Shown here: one piece after another, positions 20,284 to 64,000 of the stretch
Layout of the letters: each line of letters starts with the position of its first letter
Numbering within the stretch: position 1 is the stretch's first letter
Assembly (NCBI RefSeq): GCF_037042905.1
Contig: NC_087252.1
Span: 1,242,001-1,306,000, forward strand
Source of the DNA: Lytechinus pictus
Taxonomy: Eukaryota
DNA length: 64,000 nucleotides
Reading direction: 5' to 3'
Program-made: the position numbers and the translations under genes
The notes under the pieces: generated by a model
Seen by the model: the letters and a program-made list of their open reading frames with translations, nothing else
What the model was told of the DNA's origin: nothing
Databases searched by the model: none

Positions 20284-23200
20284 TAGTAGACTTGTTAACT
20301 GCAAAAAAAGGGGTGAACGCTGCATTTTTTAGTACAAATGTCCCACTTGGCACAAATGTTCCTTGAGTCAAAAGAAAAGGATTCATCCAAAGAGACACGC
20401 TGTATCTATGCAAATAAGCAAGTAATTTGCATAAATTTGCATATTATATCGATATAGTAAAAACAAGTATTTCAGAATATATTTTTAACCAGAACTGCCC
20501 TAAAATTGGAAATAAAGACTTAGGGTAAGAAAGGGAAGAAAATTGTCATAAAATAATTGGGATATCCTTGTTTATTATTACCTAATTTACATAAATTATG
20601 CAAATTATAATTTAAAACAAAGTATTTTTTCATGAATCCTGAACTGTTTTATAAATAACAGCAATTAATACACAATGTCAACATTCTACATGAAAGAGAA
20701 TATATTAGCGAAAACATCGATATGCTTCATGACAGTATTAGTGTCTTAATTTGCTTAGAAAGAGGGCAAATATGTCCAAATGTATGACGTGATATTGCGC
20801 TAAAACGAGACCAAAACAATCTTTATGTCACAGTCACACTCACGAATCGGACAATAAAGCGATCAATGGTATGTCATTCGAGATAACACAATCTCAACAC
20901 AATAGCTTCCATCGGCTTCTCGTATCGCTTTTGTTGGTGTGTCTGCCACACCGTAATCTATGATATATACGGACAAAATGCATTTCGGTATCGGTAAAAC
21001 ACTATTAATTTTGTTTTATTTGTTTCTAATTTACAGGAGACATTGCTTTGCAGGTTACTGCTTTAATGAAACTCTGGCACATGAATCATGACGAATGTAC
21101 CCCACCTCAATCCATTTTAACTTTGTTAAAATATATATCTTTTGGAGACCCCAAAGTGGCAAAACTGCATTCCCCGCGGCATTCCCGCTACTTTACAAAA
21201 CCAGTTTGACTTGTATTATCGACTTGGAAAAGACAGATGTATGAGACATCAGTTAACATGTTTCCAGAAGATAGTTTTTTTTATTTAAGCCTACGTCCAT
21301 GGGAGCCCTCCGAATTTACCCCATCCCCTCTCTGTATTTCGACACTAAATAAAAAAAATATATCGTGTTTTAAAGCCACCGGCAAGGCAAATTGCGTTTT
21401 TGGTATAATAAAGCAACTTTTATATCTATATTTCATATTTATCTATATTAATATTATTATTATCATTAATATTATTATTATTATTATTGTTATTATTATT
21501 ATTGTTGTTGTTGTTTTGCAGTTTGTAATAATGTTCTAGCACAGTAAAGGCTATAACCCAACAGGAGCATGCCTAGGATACCCTTTCCCCTTTTGGTTTT
21601 ATGTATTCAAAAATAGTTTATTGTCTTTAGAACTCATATCTTGGAATAGATTGAGGTGAAAATACTCTACAATTGACATGTAGAAGAGCTGTGGTACATT
21701 GAAGAAAAGCCACACGTAAGCTCTAAAATACCCCTTTATTGATTCCACTCTATGTTAAATTTAAATATTTTTAGAGTCCATTCGGAAGAAAGATACATTT
21801 ACAGTAAAGCCTCTTTACTTTCTCCTCTTGAAAAAAAAAAAACATAGAAGGCATTGTTTTATATCGCATAAAATAAGTTCGTGTACATGACGGTGGCCTG
21901 TCGAAGTTGCCCAACCCTTTATTTTGTTTTGACAATATATATTTAGAATATCGTCTAAATGAAGTCCTCATCTGGAAAAGGGCACTTATTAAAGGCAGCA
22001 TCTACATTATATAGAGGAGGCCCTGGTACTTGGAAGCGGGGGCTGAAGCACCCGCAAGACTTTTCTGAAGGGGGGGGGGCTGTGCTGCGTGTGTTATTCT
22101 CCATAGACAGCACCCCCTGGAATTCCGGCAGATGTGACAAAACGAAAAAAAGAAACGTTACCAAAAACAAACCCTTCATTTTGTAGTGCAATCCATTTTG
22201 TTTATTTGCTTGTTAAATTTCTTGATGTTAATTTGAAAAGCAAAAAAGTTTCAATGTAAAATTTTTTGTCCGAAGAAATTTAACAAGCTTCAGCCCCCTC
22301 TTCCAAGTACCAGGGCCTCCTCTATATAATGTAGATGCTGCCTTTAATAAGTGCCCTTTTCCAGATGAGGGCTTCATTTAGACGATATTCTAAATATATA
22401 TTGTCAAAACAAAATAAACGGTTGGGCAACTTCGACAGGCCACCGTCATGTACACGAACTTATTTTATGAGATATAAAACAATGCCTTCTATGTTTTTTT
22501 TTAAGAGGATAATGCAAAGAATATACAAATATAGATATAAAAGTTGCTTTATTATACCAAAAAACGCAATTTGCCTTGCCGATGATTTTAAAACACGATA
22601 TTTTTTTATTTAAAGTCGAAATACGGAGAGGGGATGGGGTAAATTCGGAGGGCTCCCGTGGGCGTAGGCTTAAATAAACAAAAAAAAAACTTTCTTCAGG
22701 AAACACGTTGACTGATGTCTCATACATCTGTCTTTTCCAAGTCGATTATACAAGTCAAACTGGTTTTGTGGCGGGAATGCAGGGGGATGCAGTTTTGCCA
22801 CCTCGGGGTCTCCAAAAAGATATATATTTTAATAAAGTTAAAATATGGATTGAGGTAGGATACATTCGTCATGATTCATGTGCCAGAGTTTCATTAAAGC
22901 AGTAACCTGCAAAGCAATGTCTCCTGTAAATTAGAAACAAATAAAACAAAATTAATAGTGTTTTACCGATACCGAAATGCATTTTGTCCGTATATATCAT
23001 AGATTACGGTGTGGCAGACACACCAACAAAAGCGATACGAGAAGCCGATGGAAGCTATTGTGTTGAGATTGTGTTATCTCGAATGACATACCATTGATCG
23101 CTTTATTGTCCGATTCGTGAGTGTGACTGGACATAAAGATTGTTTTGGTCTCGTTTTAGCGCAATATCACGTCATACATTTTGACATATTTGCCCTCTTT

Positions 23201-23664
23201 CTAAGCAAATTAAGACACTAATACTGTCATGAAGCATATCGATGTTTTCGCTAATATATTCTCTTTCATGTAGAATGTTGACATTGTGTATTAGTTGCTG
23301 TTTTTTAAAAGCAGTTCAGGATTCATGAAAAAATACTCTGTTTTAAATTATAATTTGCATAATTTATGTAAATTAGGTAATAATAAACAAGGATATCCCA
23401 ATTATTTTATGACAATTTTCTTCCCTTTCTTACCCTAAGTCTTTATTTCCAATTTTAGGGCAGTTCTGGTTAAATATATATTCTGAAATACTTGTTTTTA
23501 CTATATCGACATAATATGCAAATTTATGCAAATTACTTGCTTATTTGCATAGATACAGCGTGTCTCTTTGGATGAATCTCTTTCTTTTGACTCAAGGAAC
23601 ATTTGTGCCAAGTGGGACATTTGTACTCAAAAATGCAGCGTTCAACCTCTTAACAAGTCTACTA
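20284..23664. mobile_element. 3.4-kb palindromic non-autonomous DNA transposon, Academ-like
   Basis: Arms 20284-22049 and 22287-23664 are near-identical reverse complements; termini TAGTAGAC...GTCTACTA; 3-bp flanking duplication TCA; no transposase ORF. Confidence 0.8.
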
Positions 23665-34573: not shown

Positions 34574-34588
34574 GTGAGAGCCGTTCGT

Positions 34589-34724
34589 TAATAATAATGA
34601 TAGTAATAATAATGATAATAATAATGATGATAATAATAATAATAATGATAATAATAATAATAATAACAATAATAATAATAACAATAATAATAATAACAAT
34701 AATAACAATAATAATAATAATAAT
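34589..34724. repeat. (TAA)n microsatellite at the 5' junction of the retrotransposon
   Basis: TAA/TGA/CAA array directly abutting the RT ORF. Confidence 0.95.
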
Positions 34725-36846
34725 ATGTATAAGCTGCTGACATCAACGCTTGCCATGCACATCGAACGACACATCGATGATCATGACATAATGGAGGTCA
34801 CTCAGAAAGGTTGTCGGAAAGGAAAGAAGGGTTGTAAAGATCACCTAATGACAAACAAAGCAATAATCGGTAATGCTCGCCAAAGACAGACCAATCTATC
34901 CATGGCTTGGATAGACTACAGGAAGGCATTTGACAGCGTACCACCTAGTTGGATCATCAAAGTTCTAGAGATGTATCACATCAATCCACAAATAGTCAAG
35001 TGCATATCAGCAGGTATGAAACAATGGAGCACTACTCTTTCGCTTACAATAGGCACCCGTTCGATGACAGTGGAGGGGGTCCGAATCAAGAGAGGAATAT
35101 TTCAAGGAGATTCCTTATCTCCTCTTTTATTCTGCTTAGCTCTCAATCCAGTATGCTCTCTCTTACACGCTACGAGTTATGGCTACAGATACAAAGGGCA
35201 AGATGTATCTACGACAATAAACCATCTGATATATATGGATGATATCAAACTCTTTGCAAAAAATGACGATGAACTTCACAAGATGATAGCAGTAGTTAAA
35301 CATTTCAGCGATGACATCAAGATGTCGTTTGGTATAGACAAGTGTGCCAAAGTTACACTTGTACGAGGAAGGAGGGTAAATACAGGCGACATGTCTGTGC
35401 AAGATGAGGAAACATCAATCAAGGAACTGACTAATGATTCGACATATAAATATCTAGGCATAGCTGAGAACGATGTCATTAGCCATAACACAATGAAGGA
35501 GAAGGCAACATCAGAATACAAAAGAAGACTCAGGCTGATCCTCAAATCCGAACTGAATGCCAAAAATAAGATTGAAGCGATCAACACTCTAGCCATTCCT
35601 GTGCTTAGATACAGTTTTGGTATTGTTAACTGGAGACTAGCTGATATATGTGGCCTAGATGTTATGACCAGAAAGCAATTAACGATGCACAGATTACATC
35701 ACCCAAAGGCCGCAATCGAAAGGTTGTACCTTCCCCGTGATCTTGGAGGAAGAGGTCTACAACAAATTGAGATGGTCTGGAATATGGAAGCAACGAACCT
35801 CGCCAACTACCTATCCAATCCACCTGATATACTGACGAGTATATCCCTCGATTATGATAAATGTCAAGCAATATACTCCATTAACAAGCAAGCATCTATC
35901 TTATTGGCACAACATCGACTGACACTACCCTACGGTGAAAAAGAGAAGGCAAGACTTAAATGCTCCTTTCACAAGAAACTTCAAGAGCAACTTAAATCCA
36001 AGCGACTTCATGGCCACCATGAAAAACAGACGCATCGGGAGTTCGTAGACCAGAAAGACACACATCAATGGCTTAAGTCGGCGGGACTAAGAGGTGAAAC
36101 TGAAGGGTTCGTCTATGCTATTCAGGACCAGGTGGTGAGGACCCGTGCCTACGAAAAATCTATCCTCAGAAGAGACACAGACGACACTTGCAGGATGTGT
36201 GGAAAAGAGACCGAAACAATCATGCATTTGGTATCAGCATGTTCGACTCTTGCTGGAACTGAGTACATCACAAGACATGACAATATTGCCAAAGTTATCC
36301 ATTGGCAACTACTGAAGGATCGCGGTAAAATGACTTGTGATCACGCTTGGGAACATCAGCCACAAACGATCACCACGATCAATAACAGCACCATATATTG
36401 GAACTGTGGCATACTAACGGATAGAACCATCCACTGCAACAAGCCGGACATCATCGTCAGAGACAACAACGTAGTAAATATCATTGAGGTCTCTGTTCCC
36501 CATGATATCAACATTGCTGTAAAGGAAAGAGACAAACGGCTCAAGTATCAAGACCTAAGGATTGAGATCGAGAGGATGTGGAACGTGAAAGCAGAGGTCA
36601 CACCAGTCATCATTGGTCACTCAGGAATGGTGAAGAAGGGAATGGAAGCCTGCATAACCAAGATCTCTCCTCACCTTCGGATGTACGACATTCAGAAGGC
36701 AGCTATCTTGGGTACAACCAGATTGATAAGAAAGACTCTCGGACATTAGTAGTGTAAAGTTCCTAGTTGCACTTGAAATTACTTGGTGCTTTTTGTTAGA
36801 GCAAAGTTATTCAAGAAAAAAATACGGACTTGATCCTGTTTAGAGG
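34725..36846 (+). mobile_element. 5'-truncated R4/Dong-type non-LTR retrotransposon (RT, CCHC knuckle, restriction-like endonuclease); ORF 34725-36749
   Basis: 674 uninterrupted codons: WIDYRKAFDSV, GIFQGDSLSPLLF, YMDD, YKYLG, CRMC-x8-H-x4-C, RHD, KPDII...IEVSVP...KY; about 100-nt 3' UTR then TAA repeats. Confidence 0.9.
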
Positions 36847-56767: not shown

Positions 56768-57754
56768 TTAAGCAAAGGTAGATTCTGTGGAACAAAGTTT
56801 TCTCCAAACAGTTTTGGTCTTGAAATGCTTCAGGGCATTTTCACGGAATGTACGATTGTGATAGCAGTATATAATTGGATTTACAGCCGATCCGCAGAAA
56901 AACATGAACATTGTGACGTCATCAAATGGACGAGAGTACAGATGACCCTCAGTATCGAAAACCACAATTATATGAAACACACTCATTGGGATACAAGCAA
57001 GAAAAAAGGCAAGAGTGATGAAGGTAACTTTCTGTGATGCCTTAACACGAGAAGCGGTAATATCGTCTTGTGCTCTGCCGAAAGCCTGCTCCATATCGGC
57101 TATTCGACGCGCATGTCGCATAGCCGTTCGCAGAATCAGCATGTTGAGGACAAGTAAGGTTGATACCGATACGATGATCGCTGTCGTCACAAGGAAAAAC
57201 CACATTCTACTGCCAAGATCATACTGGAAAGTAGTCCCAGAGCAGTAGATTGTAGCGGTAGTTGGACTTTCTTCTAATTTGCTGACTAGGTGAAGCATAA
57301 ACCCAACGATACTTATCAACCAACCGATGAGTATCCCGATTGCGATTCGCTTCGTGGTGACGAGTGTTTGGTATCGGAGAGGTCGGTGAACGGCGATATA
57401 TCGATCACATGTTACCATAACAATATGAAATAGATTATTGCAACCAAAAAGATAGCTGAATGCTGAAAAATACCTTGAGTACATTTCAAGACATGTTATG
57501 TCAGAAAATGCAACTCTCCGATAGACTTCCAACGGGATTGCGATCAAACCGTTTAAAAAGTCTGTAGCGGCTAAACTGGAGAGAATATAATATGTAGGTG
57601 TCCTAAGACGTTCAGTTTTGAGGAAGGTTGCGATTACCAAGAAGTTCCCTACGACCGAAACACACATGATGAGAACAGCAAATGTGACGCAAACCCCGGT
57701 GTATACTGGGTGGTTAGAATGAAAACTCATTGTTGTATTGACAGGAGTCATCAT
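56768..57754 (-). CDS. Intronless rhodopsin-family (class A) GPCR, adenosine/amine-receptor-like, 328 aa
   Basis: GNxLV (TM1), SLAATD (TM2), DRY (TM3), W (TM4), CIP (TM6), NPIIY (TM7), helix-8 FRE; N-terminal NTT sequon. Confidence 0.92.
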   Translation of the reverse strand: MMTPVNTTMSFHSNHPVYTGVCVTFAVLIMCVSVVGNFLVIATFLKTERLRTPTYYILSSLAATDFLNGLIAIPLEVYRRVAFSDITCLEMYSRYFSAFSYLFGCNNLFHIVMVTCDRYIAVHRPLRYQTLVTTKRIAIGILIGWLISIVGFMLHLVSKLEESPTTATIYCSGTTFQYDLGSRMWFFLVTTAIIVSVSTLLVLNMLILRTAMRHARRIADMEQAFGRAQDDITASRVKASQKVTFITLAFFLACIPMSVFHIIVVFDTEGHLYSRPFDDVTMFMFFCGSAVNPIIYCYHNRTFRENALKHFKTKTVWRKLCSTESTFA

Positions 57755-58583
57755 TTCAATGTTGAAAATGGATCAATCCATCCGCGGGATAATTTTTAGG
57801 CTTAAATGTCAAATTCAAAATCCCTCTTAATTCACTCCTAATGAAACCATAGACAGGCTATAAAACAACCTTTTTCCATGTTTTTTCCTTTTCGCACGTA
57901 GGCCCGTTTATATGTCGTTCCTCTTTCCTTTTTTTTTTTTGAACTGGGTATCTTGCCAGATAGATCCGTGTTTCCCGAAACATCACCAAATCAACCATTG
58001 GACCTGCAGCTTTTTACGGATCACCTGCTTGGAGATGTGTATTATTAATATTACACACTTTCATCCACGCAGAAAAAAAATATTTAGGTTCTCTGTTAAT
58101 TTACCCGTAGTCATAGGCATTTTGCGGTAATGGTAGCTGTGATGCGTGACAGCCAATTACATTATTGTGAAAGGTATAAAGACGGGAAATTAATTGAAAA
58201 GCAAGGTGTGCAATCATCCGTGATCAATTTCCACTGACTACCTGGTGTAAAAGAGGTTGCTTTTGCGATTATAGCAACCCCAAAATGGCATGATCAAAAG
58301 ATGAAAGTAAAAAAATAATGTGCTGATTCTTGCATCGATATAACGTGAAGTATAAAGGGTTCCATTCCCTCATTTTGTTTCTATGCTCCATATCGCATCT
58401 CTTGTTCGGTGGTAATAGAACCAAATACTTTGGCTCCATAAAGACTGTAATCATGCCCTATATAAAAATCCTATAATAATTATATAGGATTATTTTTATA
58501 CAACGAGGTCCCAGTGTTTCGCATCCGACCGCATTTTTGGCTGCATCAATGCTTGAGCCCCTAGGAACGAACATAGCACAGTT

Positions 58584-58830
58584 AATGATGATGATGATGA
58601 TGATGATAATGTTGATAAACAGCATTTTTATAGCGCCATTTTTCTGTAAAAGAAAAAAAACATTCAAAGGCGCAGGCACCCTATATATGTCACACATTAT
58701 TCACAAAGTTGCTCGAAGAGATGGGTCTTTAATAGTTCAGATCTAAAGGTTTAAATGTTGTTATAATCATGAAGTTGGATTGGTAGAGAATTCTAAATCC
58801 AAGGAGCAACAGACGAAAAAGCTCTATATC
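58584..58830 (-). mobile_element. Decayed L2-type LINE 3' end
   Basis: Minus strand reads RAFSSVAPWI*NSLP...LKTHL, followed by GCGCTATAAAAATGC and a (CAT)n tail. Confidence 0.65.
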
Positions 58831-59013
58831 CTCTAATGCCGGGGTGATTATCATTAGATCATGATAAAGTTAAAGCTGGGAGAACTAGTTTTCGGAACTA
58901 TGATGCGGCTATATTGGGAAACATGACTTTCTCATTCTTATCATTCCTAACTTTACATGGCTCGGCGGATATTCGCCACCACTTCCAAATTCACTCTTCG
59001 TTTGACCCCATGC

Positions 59014-59977
59014 TTAATCAAAAGTAGATTCAGAAGAACAAAGTTTTCTCCAAACAGTTATGTCTTTGAAGTATCTGACTGCATTTTCACGGAACAAACG
59101 ATCACGGTAGCAGTATATAACCGGGTTCACCGCAGAGCTAAGGTAAAATATAAACGCTGCCATGTTGTCAAAAGACCATTGTCGATAACAATGGCGACAT
59201 GAACTATACTCGTGGATATGCAACAAACAAAAAACGCAAGGGTGATCGTGGTGACTATATCTTTGAAGCCTTGATACGAGAGACGCTTTCTTCTTGACGT
59301 CCTCGACTGACGGCTTGTTCCATCTGAGCGATCCTCCGAGCATGGTGCAATGCTGTACGAAGAATCAACATGTTGAGGATGACCAATGTTAGTGAGGACA
59401 AGATGATGATTATCATCAGGATGATGATCCCAATCCTATACAGGTGATCCGTTTGAGTGATAGTCCCAGCGCAGTAGTTTCCGACGAGACTTGCATCTTC
59501 ATCTTTACCAACCAGACCGATGACAAACAAGATGCTCATCAACCAGCTGAGGAGTATCCCGAAAGCGATTCGCTTCGAGGCGACCAAGGCTTCGTACCGG
59601 AGAGGTTTATGAACAGCGATGTAACGATCCAAGGTTACCATGACGATGTGAAGCAGAGAATTCCCGCCAAATAGATAGGTGAACGACGAGAGGTACCTTG
59701 AGTAGATGTAAAGACATGTCACTTCAATGAAGACAGCTCTGTTGAATGTTTCTAGTGGTATGCTGATAGCACCGTTTAAAAGGTGGACAAAAGCTAAACT
59801 AGATAAAAGATAGTAGGTAGGTCTTCGGAGGCGATCGGTTTTTAGGAAGGTGGCAACTACCAGAAAGTTTCCGACAACAGTACTGCAGATGAGAAGAATA
59901 GCCAACGTAACAATGAAAGCTGTGTAGATTGGAGAATTAGGAATCCATGGAAGGGTACATGTATTCACTGAAGCCAT
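59014..59977 (-). pseudogene. Frameshifted tandem paralog of the class A GPCR
   Basis: ATG 59977; colinear with 56768-57754; extra TA near 59256-59259 gives KASKI*; TM6 (VTTITLAFFVCCIS) lies in a second frame; deletion near 59175 shifts again before FDNMAAF...NPVIY; TM2 Asp replaced (SLAFVH). Confidence 0.85.
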
Positions 59978-60770
59978 TGTGTACACGGTTTTATTTCAAA
60001 GATTTTAACAATAAAGAAACAAAATAAATCAAGATATAATGGTTAATAGGCTGTAAAGCTATTGCCTTCTAGCTCCTGGTGATGTCATAATGAATTTTAT
60101 GAGAAATATAGAATTAGGTAGTCAACAGGATTTTGTTCCTCAAAGCTGGCTTCCTTTAGCATGTTTAGTGTATGCCACGATTGGTCCTCATGAGTATTAT
60201 ATAACAAGAAGCGCCATCGTTTACGATGTGCTTGTATATATGATGCAGAGAAAAGCCAGCGATGTCAAAGAAAATAATATATCTTCAGGAATCATGGGAA
60301 TTGTAAGAAGAAGTAACAAAATCGGATGAGTATTCGAGCTAATAATGCTATCATAGTTAGCTTTGAATGATTGATACTAGGGCAAGGTCACAAGCTCTTA
60401 AAAGGAAATCCATGCCAGGGTATTAATTAAAAAAATATATAAATTTATTTTAGCCGACCAAAATTTACTTCAAGTGTTTTACGCATTGTTGATTTTAGAT
60501 GCACGGCAGCATTAAAATACAGTTCATGGCACAATACATTAAACTAATTAGGGTTTCGAGATGACAGCGGTTGCTGCATCCGTTTTCTCTTGTCGTACAC
60601 TTTTTTTGGACGTTACATACTACGGTCGATCCCCATGATATGAATATGAGTTCGCTTTTAATTCAATTTAAGTGTTTCAAGCACTATGTCAGATGCATTG
60701 TAGCATAAATTGGTTGTGCGACCATTCATGTCCCGATACATTATACCTAATTAATTAGGGCTTCTTTATA

Positions 60771-61900
60771 GAGTACAAGGGCGTACCAAGTTTTCCATTG
60801 GAGGCAGGGGTATGTTCCTCACACTGTCAGAGTAGGTGTTTCTCAGGTGGTCTTGTAACTCCTCTCTAGTGGCCTTCAGTTCACCAGATTTCACAGGGTT
60901 GAAAAGAGCTTTGGTGAAGGCAAAATGATCTTCATAGACTTTCTGTAGTTTCTTGGCACATCCTTTCCCTTTCCTTCTAAGCGTCTTGGACAGAGCTTTC
61001 AACCTCCTTCTCTGCTCATCTCTGATGTCATCTAGAGCTTTCATTTCAATATCATTGTTATTCTTTCTTGCCTCCTTCCAACGCCGCTGCAGGGCTCGTA
61101 CACTGTGTCGTATGTCATGGATTTCTTGCTGTCTTAGCCTCGATGTAACCGTCTGTGGCTTCGTACTGGCACAACCGAAGTTGTCGACCCCGTACTGGTA
61201 TTTTGCCTCCATCATAGAAGAGAGTCTCTCTTCGGTATTTCGCTTCATAGATTCGACCAGTACTTTGTCAAGCTGGTCATCCATGGCTTCCCACATGTCT
61301 TTACTAGTTGAATTAGGCCACTTTACCTTCGGACGTTTGCTCATACTACTTGGGTTGTGGGATGTAGCGTCGGAATCGGGGGCACCGTGGTTGTCATCCT
61401 TGCCACTATTTCCATGCGCCTGACGTGACTGATCACTGCGTTGCTTAGCCCACTGCTCACTCCTTGGCTGCTCAGATGTCGCTCTCCTAGTGCAACCTAC
61501 CTTCGCCTGGTGAATTCTTAGACCCTTGGTTGTGTTGAAATTTCTATCGCATGATACACAGGCTACCGTTGGGCGCAATCGTAGTCCTGGGGCGAAGCCT
61601 AGTCCTTATATCAGTATCATCCGGCCGTGTTAGTGATTCTTCCGCTCCCCTCTCGGATCACTCTGGGAGTATTCTTAATTGTCTATCAGAAATCGTAACA
61701 ACATAGAGGGTGCCACAAAGGGCTGAGTTAGGGGCAGTAAACCCCCTCCTCCCCCGCCTGGGTTGCCGGCAAAGTCATGCAAGTCTCTCCTTGCTGTCAC
61801 CAGCCTGTTCCTGGTTCGTCACCATGGTCTATTTCTATGTGGTCACTGGGAGTCCAGTACCGCGAGATGATAAAAACACACCTTGTGCAGAGAAATGTCC
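60771..61900 (-). mobile_element. HERO-like non-LTR retrotransposon, 5' UTR and N-terminal ORF fragment (zinc finger), broken before RT
   Basis: CVSC-x12-HQAKVGC finger, KVKWP, FAFTKALF and HLRNTYSD blocks typical of the N-terminus of RLE-type ORFs; no RT follows. Confidence 0.7.
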
Positions 61901-61904
61901 TCCA

Positions 61905-62017
61905 GAACAGCTGGATCCTCAGTCGAGGTCCTCCTGCCAGCCATTTCGGCCCATTATCCTTGATGTGGCAGGAGGTGGGCCAGCAGCGTCAAGACGAGAT
62001 GCAACCTCCAGCTGCTC
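61905..62017 (-). ncRNA. Candidate hammerhead-core ribozyme with permuted, pseudoknotted helices
   Basis: GAAA (61947-61944) and CUGAGGA (61922-61916), each flanked by strands with complementary partners (11, 6, 10 and 5/6 bp) plus an extra hairpin; C at the U16.1 position suggests this copy is decayed. Confidence 0.5.
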
Positions 62018-62758
62018 GTTTGGTAAGTTGTCTTTATATTTAATCCAAAACCAGGCTGAGGACCTTGTAGCAATCTCCATTAATTCCAAAGCCAGCTTCC
62101 TTCTGTTGGTTATTCCCATCCTTGAGAGGAAGAAATGGAGAGACTTGGTCGCATATCCTCTGCAGCCGATCTCCACTGGGTAGTAGTCTACCTTCCATCC
62201 CCTCTTCTTACATTCTAAGATAAGTCCGGCATATTTTGACGTCTTGTACTCATGGGCCGTCTCAATTTTCTCCTCCCATGGTACAGTCAGTTTACAGAGG
62301 ATGACCGACTTGGATTGCTTCGACCAGACTACCATATCTGGTCGCATGTTGGTAGTCACAATCTCACTGGGAAAGGTCATCTGCTCATCCAAGTCTGAGA
62401 CCAACTGCCAATCTCTTGCTAGACAAAGGAGCCTACTTGTGTGTAGTCTAGCTTTTCTGTTGGCTCCAGTACTTGTTCCAGCCTTCACAAATGAGATCAT
62501 CGCTGGAGCATTTAGTGGTTTTGTCTGGTTTGCTTTTTCAATAGTGATCTTTAGGGCATTGCTCAGTTCTTTCAAGATCACATTGTGCCTCCATATATAC
62601 AAGTCTTCTACCAGAGACACCTAACAATTTGATAGAATGTGTCTGAGTGAACCTTTCTTTCCACATCTATGGCAATTCTCGTTCTCGGTCTTGGTCCACT
62701 TCTTCAGGTTATACGGAGAAGGAGGAACGTCGTAGGTTGCTCGTAGCAAGAATTGGAC
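61919..62758 (-). mobile_element. HERO-like non-LTR retrotransposon, C-terminal fragment (CCHC knuckle and restriction-like endonuclease), decayed
   Basis: FLLRATYDV-PSP-NL, CHRC...HILSNC*, WRHN, RPDMVVWS, (K)LTVPWEE, KY, GW...PVEIGCRGY; in-frame TAG at 62621-62623; expected acidic catalytic residue reads K. Confidence 0.85.
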
Positions 62759-63243
62759 TTATATAAGTCTAATCATCTTATTAATGTGTATGTCAGTTTA
62801 GTCAATAGAACTGAAAATCGATTAATCAACGATTAAGACATTCTATATCAATCAATATATTGACCGGTTAATCGTTTTAATAAATAAAATAATTTCAGTA
62901 ATGTGTCGGTCAATAGTTTTGTTTGTTTTATAGCGTGTTTTTATTGTCTTCTCTCAAATCAAATATACAATTACAATATAACTCCCATAAGCAAATTATA
63001 CAATCATTGAAACAGGTTTTATCACAGAATTACACAATTGTACAGCGATCATTGAGAACGAAAAATATATAATGATAAGTACATGTAACTTGTCTCTAGT
63101 ATAGACCGAAATTCATTGGAATCAGCAATGAAAAGAGAGAAAAATAAAGATAAAAAAATATTTACATTAACAATCGATCAATCAATAATGCGATGACATT
63201 ATGTTTTTTTTTTTTTTAGATTTTTACTCCTCCACATACATAA

Positions 63244-63770
63244 CGCTGAATCCACGAAGTGGCACAACGTCCCAAAATCACGTGAAAAGTCCATTTTAAG
63301 TATCATTCTGTTTTAGAAGTCAATTCTTAGTATCTTTCAGATTTAGTATTCCTTGACTGTGGTTTATCATTTCACTGAAATTTAGAACCCAATTCTCTGT
63401 AATTAATGAGATAATTAAAGTGAAAAAAATGACACTAGTCTCTAAATCCTTTGTAAAATAATCCACGAAATGGCACGCACGTGCGCGCCGTTTCTACGTA
63501 CGCTGAAGTAATATTTTCCACAAAACGACACTTGTCATGCTTGTGTTTGAATCACTGCTATGTCAAGATTTGATGTTTATTCGATGAAATTTTAACATGG
63601 GAGGCAGGAGTAGATACCTGGCTCGTGGTATGTGCATTTGTCATTCTGTTAAATTTCACAATCATATAGCAACGGGCAATTGAAAATATAACAATCTTTA
63701 ACTGCGTTTATCTCGTTAAGTGAATTCGCCCATCAACGGTTGCGTGTGCCACTTCGTGGATTCGGGGACG
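63244..63770. mobile_element. Non-autonomous TIR element
   Basis: GAATCCACGAAGTGGCACA at left, TGTGCCACTTCGTGGATTC at right, third internal copy near 63460. Confidence 0.65.
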
Positions 63771-63861
63771 ATATATACACTATCGCACACACACACGTAC
63801 ACATCCATACATATAGGCCAGTATGAAATTACAGTATTGAATTTCATCTGGGACAAATTTC

Positions 63862-63895
<34 letters not shown>

Positions 63896-64000
63896 CGCTG
63901 ACTGTTAAAAGCTACTGAAATCCGCCAATCTGATTGGCTTAAAGTGAATTTTGGTAGTTTCTTCATATCACAACTCTTTATAAAACGGGACCCTACCTTG

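Follow-up and report, generated by a model that had tools for sequence, protein, structure and literature searches.

A putative split-core hammerhead in the tails of HERO-type retrotransposons of Lytechinus pictus

In a 64,000-nucleotide stretch of Lytechinus pictus DNA (the window), minus-strand positions 62757 to 61864 belong to a non-LTR retrotransposon that encodes a PD..D/ExK endonuclease, and make up its 3' part. Sequence comparison indicates that HERO-type elements of this kind carry in their tails a real, conserved and new variant of the hammerhead fold. The copy in the window is, judging by its sequence, an inactive remnant; intact copies elsewhere appear to be hammerheads with the block order S-G-C (in the block terms of PMC10085705) in which the CUGANGA block is separated from stem II. 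We favor a reading in which this split-core hammerhead would cut the element RNA, the freed RNA would be ligated into a circle and primed internally, and a tail-head junction would be rebuilt by reverse transcription. To this reading as a whole we assign a probability of about 0.52.

Architecture of the motif

The features of the window copy are given below. Percentages after a strand are the paired cells of the corresponding helix in the alignment described later.

61864..62757, minus: family A HERO-type RLE non-LTR retrotransposon, 3' part, 5'-truncated, 93% identical to the full-length copy L006; 61864 is the usual 3' end of family A, and the 3' element part stops there
61919..62620, minus: C-terminal part of the ORF, with PD..D/ExK restriction-like endonuclease
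62007..62017, minus: strand a, which forms the 5' side of the additional closing helix (partner 61915-61905)
61982..62006, minus: extra hairpin, the second arm of a four-way junction (75% paired)
61977..61981, minus: 5' strand of stem II, which gives G10.1 from upstream (84% paired)
61967..61975, minus: strand c of the helix that connects stem I with stem II (75.5% paired), analogous to the interaction helix of type SGC
61964..61966, minus: scar of an 8-nt deletion, register ambiguous; the 3' strand of stem III and U16.1 are lost
61958..61963, minus: stem I strand 3' of the cut site, with one mismatch in this copy (95.6% paired)
61939..61952, minus: block G (stem II 3' strand 61952-61948; GAAA 61947-61944; stem III 5' strand 61943-61939)
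61930..61938, minus: strand c' of the linking helix
61916..61928, minus: split block C (stem I partner 61928-61923; CUGAGGA 61922-61916)
61905..61915, minus: strand a', immediately 3' of A9, whose partner is a and not stem II
61700..61863, minus: family A head (5' UTR), joined seamlessly to the tail; L020 and a contig of run X18 show the same joint
61846, 61822 and 61800 (starts), minus: three GUGAC-led repeats in the head
60779..61605, minus: N-terminal part of the family A ORF, with a zinc-finger-like motif, broken off at 60779

The genome itself (812 Mb) holds 35 matches to the element region of the window, 20 of which were fetched for comparison. Eight nucleotides just 5' of the predicted cut, missing in the window copy, are present in 20/20 of the other aligned copies; they comprise a strand that forms 5 bp with the bases following GAAA, and then U16.1 (found in 20/20 copies) and A17. 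The initial annotation, which took c/c' for stem III and saw a point change to C at U16.1, needs amendment on both counts. Stem III was mislabelled because of the 8-nt deletion in the window copy; the separate 5-bp stem III strand in all 20 copies rules out c/c' for that role and makes it a fourth helix, and the supposed C belongs to a deletion scar. The remaining anatomy was read correctly. Each strand lies on the minus strand where it had been placed; the 11-bp helix a/a', the hairpin, stem II, stem I with five of its six pairs, GAAA and CUGAGGA are as described; and the scissile bond 61964/61963 was correctly positioned as a prediction, the predicted cut in intact copies falling between the positions equivalent to these two. 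Note that both U16.1 and the non-G at position 17 are absent from the window copy, that its A.C mismatch in stem I is common to three of the 20 other copies, and that its extra hairpin, of 9 bp in intact copies, is imperfect. A strict six-helix descriptor found all six helices in 10 of the 20 own-genome copies and part of them in two more, with no match in the window copy itself. Since intact natural copies exist, no restored consensus of the sort that had been proposed is needed.

Read 5' to 3', the first half of the intact motif consists of strand a, the hairpin, the 5' strand of stem II (with G10.1), strand c, the 3' strand of stem III and the UH of the cut site. The second half consists of the stem I strand, a linker, the 3' strand of stem II, GAAA, the 5' strand of stem III, strand c', the stem I partner, CUGANGA and strand a'. 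As had been recognized at the outset, this crossed order matches none of hammerhead types I to III, and their nested three-way junction is absent. The stem II strand has moved to the 5' side together with c, helix a and the hairpin bridge the gap between A9 and G10.1, and in family A linkers of 0-4 nt connect helix c with the far end of stem III. Because A9 is not joined directly to the stem II strand and block C is split, we class the motif as a variant and not as a plain member of type SGC.

More conventional folds were looked for and discarded. When stem II was built from the bases after A9, as in plain type SGC, 45.7% of cells were paired, which equals chance, and 6 of 28 sequences could pair at 10.1-11.1; a canonical stem II closing on a downstream GAAA occurred at 1 of 59 metagenome loci. 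A search of window positions 58000-64000 against Rfam at E<=10 gave neither a hammerhead nor any other ribozyme, and one of 12 loci at E<=1 was equally empty.

Host elements and distribution

The full-length copy L006 has a single 1183-aa frame with a reverse transcriptase (RT) domain (RVT_1, E 1.5e-21), a zf-RVT zinc knuckle that falls below the cut-off, and a PD..D/ExK nuclease motif recognized by eye. Counted by hand rather than computed, its RT agrees with HERO-1_BF, as given in the supplement of PMC7650587, at about 64 of about 118 residues, and the R4 row printed beside it there is visibly more distant from L006. This match makes it very likely that the element belongs to the HERO clade, and the HERO-type host named in the initial annotation is supported by an ORF with RT and PD..D/ExK nuclease. 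The HERO clade as described shares a single ORF, an RT followed by PD..D/ExK, and dispersed insertion (PMC4640811, PMC3636483, PMC7650587); here, too, insertion is dispersed, with copies on many contigs and 12 3' flanks that differ and all begin with A or T. The best solved relatives of L006 are R2 proteins (E 2e-25), and the RT tree below held no named HERO. A Penelope-like element or retrozyme was considered and rejected, there being no GIY-YIG domain and an ORF with an R2-group RT and a restriction-like endonuclease being present.

Forty further loci were picked from 150 protein matches in the same genome. Two further families, with 36-41% identity in the nuclease region, have the same strand order with different letters in every helix, so that the genome contains at least three families with the motif. 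At 18 other RLE loci (L043-L060, nearly all more distant) the descriptor matched none, nor did a covariance model in the ten on which it was run.

Among metagenome contigs, 183 relatives were confirmed and 80 kept, and in 59 of the latter the sequence continues for at least 200 nt past the ORF anchor. GAAA followed by CUGANGA occurs after the ORF in 40 of the 59, with none upstream, none in antisense and a mean of 0.95 (maximum 4) in 200 shuffles. The full six-helix descriptor matched 20/59 loci (antisense 0, upstream 0, 100 shuffles 0), and the covariance model, which was trained on 25 of these same loci, placed the motif after the ORF in 50 of them. All 63 model matches lie on the sense strand of the element. 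The nine loci without a motif after the ORF are L090, L092, L094, L097, L099, L100, L107, L123 and L139; of these, L092 is inside the clade and has an intact tail-head region. In viral contigs there were 12 pattern matches, and no relative was among them. In an RT tree of 66 rows (quick search, midpoint root, long branches meeting, rows with fewer than 200 aligned RT residues left out), all 33 motif-labelled rows fall in one group of 51 with an SH-aLRT of 100, and none is among the 15 rows outside it. The group also holds proteins named from teleost fish. (L100 is labelled as having the motif in this tree though its match is 1.6 kb past the ORF.)

Several tails in this group have other contents. 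The match in L100 (4995-5096) lies beyond a tail without the motif and may be part of a non-autonomous element or of a different one. Between ORF and head, L090 (2660-2760), L094, L116 (1540-1680) and L092 (1330-1420) have other stretches that are rich in GC and apparently folded; in L116 the hammerhead motif is present as well, about 170 nt beyond its other folded stretch. Rfam returned nothing for the GC-rich stretches of those group members that have no hammerhead at the usual place. By eye, the folded stretch of L090 and L116 is what we take to be loosely twister-like.

Covariation, core positions and known hammerheads

From 38 anchored loci we retained 25 non-redundant sequences, added one for each family of the own genome, and aligned the resulting 28 by sequence alone; relatedness was partly controlled, and the structure columns were taken from one row (L075) and a scan. 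Over the 42 pairs of the model, 80.7% of cells were paired in these 28 non-redundant sequences, compared with 57.6% after shuffling and 36-43% when the strands were slid, and 39 of the 42 pairs showed double changes. By helix, pairing was 72% for a, 75% for the hairpin, 84.3% for stem II, 75.5% for c, 87.7% for stem III and 95.6% for stem I, with double changes in 10/10 pairs of helix a and 6/7 pairs of helix c. Moreover, the top 10 of 9,082 APC-corrected column pairs are all pairs of the model, in stems I, II, III and c; helix a has a best rank of 15, and the hairpin is weak by this measure, with a best rank of 55. In 37 held-out rows, 13 of which are more than 85% like a training row, stem I was paired in 141 of 152 cells (93%) and stem II in 149 of 170 (88%), compared with 65 of 148 for the rival stem II; the covariance model used does not contain stems I and II. 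All six helices covary across copies and families, as the proposal of a hammerhead core had required.

The core letters C3 U4 G5 A6 N7 G8 A9 and G12 A13 A14 A15.1 are present, though the counts in the 63 model matches are partly circular, and the invariance of GAAA and CUGANGA in the 28 sequences is circular because both served as anchors for picking them. At positions outside that selection, U16.1 is found in 24 of the 28, a non-G at position 17 in 26 and C11.1 in 24, and position 7 varies freely. The conservation of U16.1 had been singled out as a test of the proposal, and it withstands that test. At A9/G10.1, where the initial annotation saw two extra helices, there is a four-way junction: it has no unpaired base in 20/28 sequences and at most two in 24/28, and ten shuffled controls gave 0-2 perfect junctions. 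In L062 and L067, G10.1 directly follows A9 and the junction lies one pair higher, so that the 10.1-11.1 pair is kept either way.

These results bear on the idea that the motif is a chance match or an artefact of alignment. It is true that the strict descriptor fails on the window copy and that Rfam is empty, but the motif occurs in three families of one genome and in 50/59 metagenome loci, on the sense strand only and with controls near zero. Covariation and controls together refute this idea, which we regard as barely credible.

A second alternative is that the tail is a folded structure that does not cleave, a relic or mimic of a hammerhead that serves as a recognition signal for the RT-endonuclease of the element. 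RLE elements bind their own 3' UTR (PMC6765202), the whole motif is kept in all normal insertions, a different conserved helix takes up the strand after A9, and nested energy folds give a, the hairpin, c and stem III alone, by a method in which pseudoknots are impossible. Against this, an upstream strand completes stem II, which covaries (ranks 8, 9, 14 and 41 of 9,082), whereas the rival pairing is at chance, and the combination of U16.1, a non-G at 17 and a free position 7 is the pattern of catalysis, with no evident reason in a binding site. We consider a non-cleaving tail quite unlikely.

The closest known system is type SGC (HRIMA-1 and a variant), which was described in PMC10085705 as having S-G-C order, cleaves in vitro at rates in the range of about 0.01 per minute or more, needs a linking helix, and was found only in metatranscriptomes. 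It shares with the HERO motif that order, a short linker between stems I and II, the full set of core letters, two core pseudoknots and a Watson-Crick helix that joins stems I and II on their other sides. Unlike type SGC, the HERO motif has its block C split from its stem II strand, which sits 5' with strand c, and has a closing helix and a hairpin that form the four-way junction at A9/G10.1. The hosts differ as well: the HERO motif resides in a chromosomal autonomous retrotransposon, whereas the open text of PMC10085705 reports no type SGC in genomes of known organisms. Cleavage has been demonstrated for type SGC (PMC10085705) and is predicted for the HERO motif. The statement in the initial annotation that no description was known thus stands for the split block C and the retrotransposon host, which are what is new, and falls for the crossed S-G-C order, which type SGC already has. 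In the open literature, including reviews of retrotransposon ribozymes and of HERO, we found no HERO ribozyme and no hammerhead with a split block C. The searchable text of the PMC10085705 supplement makes no mention of HERO, and the accessible text on the HERO clade (PMC4640811, PMC3636483, PMC7650587) mentions no ribozyme, terminal repeat or circular intermediate.

Two points in the accessible text of PMC10085705 weigh against catalysis: block C is assumed there to be uninterruptible beyond 1-2 nt, and for some SGC RNAs a helix c-like link to the far end of stem III by short linkers is called a geometry 'not obviously compatible'. An insertion at A9/G10.1 does exist in an active natural hammerhead, that of the CChMVd (+) viroid RNA, which tolerates one extra nucleotide (A10) there (PMC3705267, PMC1636495), although in CChMVd it is a single nucleotide in a type III fold and in the HERO motif two helices in a doubly pseudoknotted one. 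AUA and GUA cut sites are found in natural hammerheads (PMC1636495). Structurally, the core, helix a, the hairpin and stem II would form a perfect four-way junction at A9/G10.1, in which the core would stack on stem II through the unbroken C11.1-G12 strand and helix a on the hairpin, so that the active site would be left untouched; helix c would hold stems I and II together. We think it probable that intact copies self-cleave, as monomers or perhaps as dimers.

Copy anatomy and a candidate RNA cycle

Measured from the usual 3' end, the predicted cut lies 100 nt inside the element in family A; for families B and C the distance is about 95 nt. In family A (L006 4025-4075, minus) the reading frame extends across strand a, the hairpin, stem II's upstream strand and c, and ends in the linker just ahead of the cut-site strand. 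The strand deleted in the window copy is where intact copies have their stop codon, so that the ORF overlaps the 5' half of the motif, and translation could therefore block folding. Normal insertions keep the whole motif, and poly(A) is absent at 12/12 of the 3' ends shown. The template must therefore cross the cut site intact, whether ligated or uncut.

In the window, as the initial annotation had seen, the tail is followed without a gap by a head: the family A head and the first third of the ORF occupy 61863-60779 (minus). A tail precedes all eight element heads found, 3/3 in family A and 5/5 in family B (of 11 matches); a fourth head match of family A has no head start and is outside the count of three. 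The joint is identical within each family, apart from a small deletion there in L006. By a rough pattern, a head-like motif follows the ribozyme motif on the 3' side at 10 of 48 metagenome loci. Three copies are longer than one unit: L006 begins 21 nt downstream of the cut, L159 61 nt downstream, and L038, whose 3' end is normal, 240 nt upstream. Six copies run past the usual 3' end into a head (the window copy, L020, L027, L034, L158 and L160); these are older, at 74-95% identity, and L020 is almost one full circle in permuted order. As judged from their sequences, the over-unit and run-on copies are what a circular or multimeric template would give. Uncut tandem transcripts fit them too, and the run-on copies are old enough that they may be trimmed arrays.

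Two family A stubs, L141 (4092-4002) and L142 (4045-3955), contain nothing from before the predicted cut; their first bases lie 7 and 10 nt downstream of it. For partial copies of family B the starts are at -12, +24 and +42 nt relative to the cut, so that no clear 5'-end signal emerges there. In three raw RNA runs, of which about 6% each was sampled, there were almost no element reads and no peaks of starts or ends, which is uninformative on cleavage and expression.

We infer cleavage, ligation, circles and internal priming from the structure, conservation, place and copy anatomy of the motif. A locus with the arrangement tail-head-ORF-tail would be transcribed, and two cuts, each some 95-100 nt 5' of the usual 3' end of the element, would free a unit RNA whose ends would stay paired through four helices and could be ligated into a circle by the ribozyme or by an RtcB-type ligase. 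The RT-endonuclease of the element would then prime internally, about 100 nt past the cut, and could run for more than one lap, which would rebuild the tail-head junction. That the motif acts on tandem or circular transcripts, as first suggested, is probable; that the circle cycle itself is correct we regard as an even bet. The broader claim, that HERO elements are autonomous LINE-type elements that replicate via a covalently closed circle of RNA produced by a new hammerhead architecture, non-circularly permuted and with a four-way junction in its core, and owe LTR-like terminal repeats to internal priming and reverse transcription over more than one lap, is more tentative, and we put it slightly below even. 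Against the circle cycle stand the nine of 59 loci without the motif after the ORF and the fact that known copies, if normal, all cross the cut site intact, which uncut RNA would explain equally.

Alternatively, an active hammerhead could work on linear RNA: the copy in an upstream tail would cut the element's 5' end free of tandem or read-through transcripts, or cutting would limit the RNA. The 3' copy would stay uncut in those RNAs that are copied, blocked by a ribosome or an element protein, and tail-head joints would come from tandem read-through or template jumps. The structural evidence (covariation, core positions, junction) is identical for this alternative; the passage of the family A ORF through the 5' half of the motif suits it, as do the starts of L006 and L159 and of the two stubs shortly downstream of the cut, and R2 and L1Tc, with their HDV-like ribozymes, offer a precedent (PMC6765202, section 11). 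Yet L038 begins far upstream of the cut and has a normal 3' end, several joints have a long upstream ORF, template jumping from a cut 5' end onto the 3' end of a second RNA is expected to leave the 100-nt tail twice at a joint, which none of those shown has, and two stubs among about 30 copies are explicable as chance truncation. We consider cutting of linear RNA alone somewhat unlikely.

Partial precedents for the circle cycle come from Penelope-like elements and retrozymes, which share with the HERO elements a terminal hammerhead and tandem or partial-tandem copies (PMC6765202, PMC7229834, PMC11167929). Internal priming is described for a Penelope element (PMC11167929) and circular RNAs for retrozymes (PMC7229834), and the cycle proposed here would share the former with Penelope-like elements and circles from two cuts with retrozymes. 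Those elements have type I or minimal hammerheads and either a telomerase-like RT with a GIY-YIG nuclease or no ORF, whereas the HERO-type element has an R2-group RT and a C-terminal restriction-like endonuclease. R2 and L1Tc (HDV-like ribozymes) and Schistosoma twister variants are likewise autonomous non-LTR elements with self-cleaving RNA (PMC6765202, PMC8501958); their ribozymes are of another class, and in R2 and L1Tc the ribozyme is at the 5' end, whereas the HERO motif follows the ORF, about 100 nt inside the 3' end.

If the reading is true, animal chromosomes would have in this motif their first non-circularly permuted hammerhead. It would also overturn the assumption that the CUGANGA block is inseparable from stem II, an assumption whose failure would amount to a blind spot in descriptor and Rfam searches. 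The little-studied HERO clade would gain a testable RNA-processing step, and the motif may connect the R2-group LINEs with the cycle of circular RNAs that has been proposed for retrozymes. Ribozyme engineering, too, would gain a useful site if there is a conserved opening at A9/G10.1 with room for two helices.

Other observations concern the contigs, the head and the rest of the window. The contigs L063, L071 and L092 are of unit length (3.7-3.9 kb) with exact terminal overlaps of 111, 36 and 25 nt, and several homologous proteins also come from 3.8-kb contigs; we set these cyclic assemblies aside as evidence for circles, tandem DNA fitting them equally. The element head contains several short GUGAC-led stem-loops with purine-rich loops, conserved across families (the three repeats of the window head; L061, L063, L069, L075, L076, L078, L088, L108 and L128), which are possibly a protein-binding or promoter signal. 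An abundant satellite-like repeat (L027 900-1146 and L154-L157; 1179 candidates at a spacing of about 390 nt) adjoins the family B head in L027; it was considered as a carrier of the motif and proved to be a separate repeat without it. Elsewhere in the window, 56768-57772 (minus) holds an intronless rhodopsin-family GPCR frame (7tm_1, E 7e-37), with a neighboring paralogue at 59014-59995 (minus) broken into several frames. A separate reverse-transcriptase frame of 723 aa (RVT_1) with no family A DNA match lies at 34578-36749 (plus), and long near-perfect inverted repeats (97-99%) at 20311-23647 form a palindrome of about 3.3 kb.
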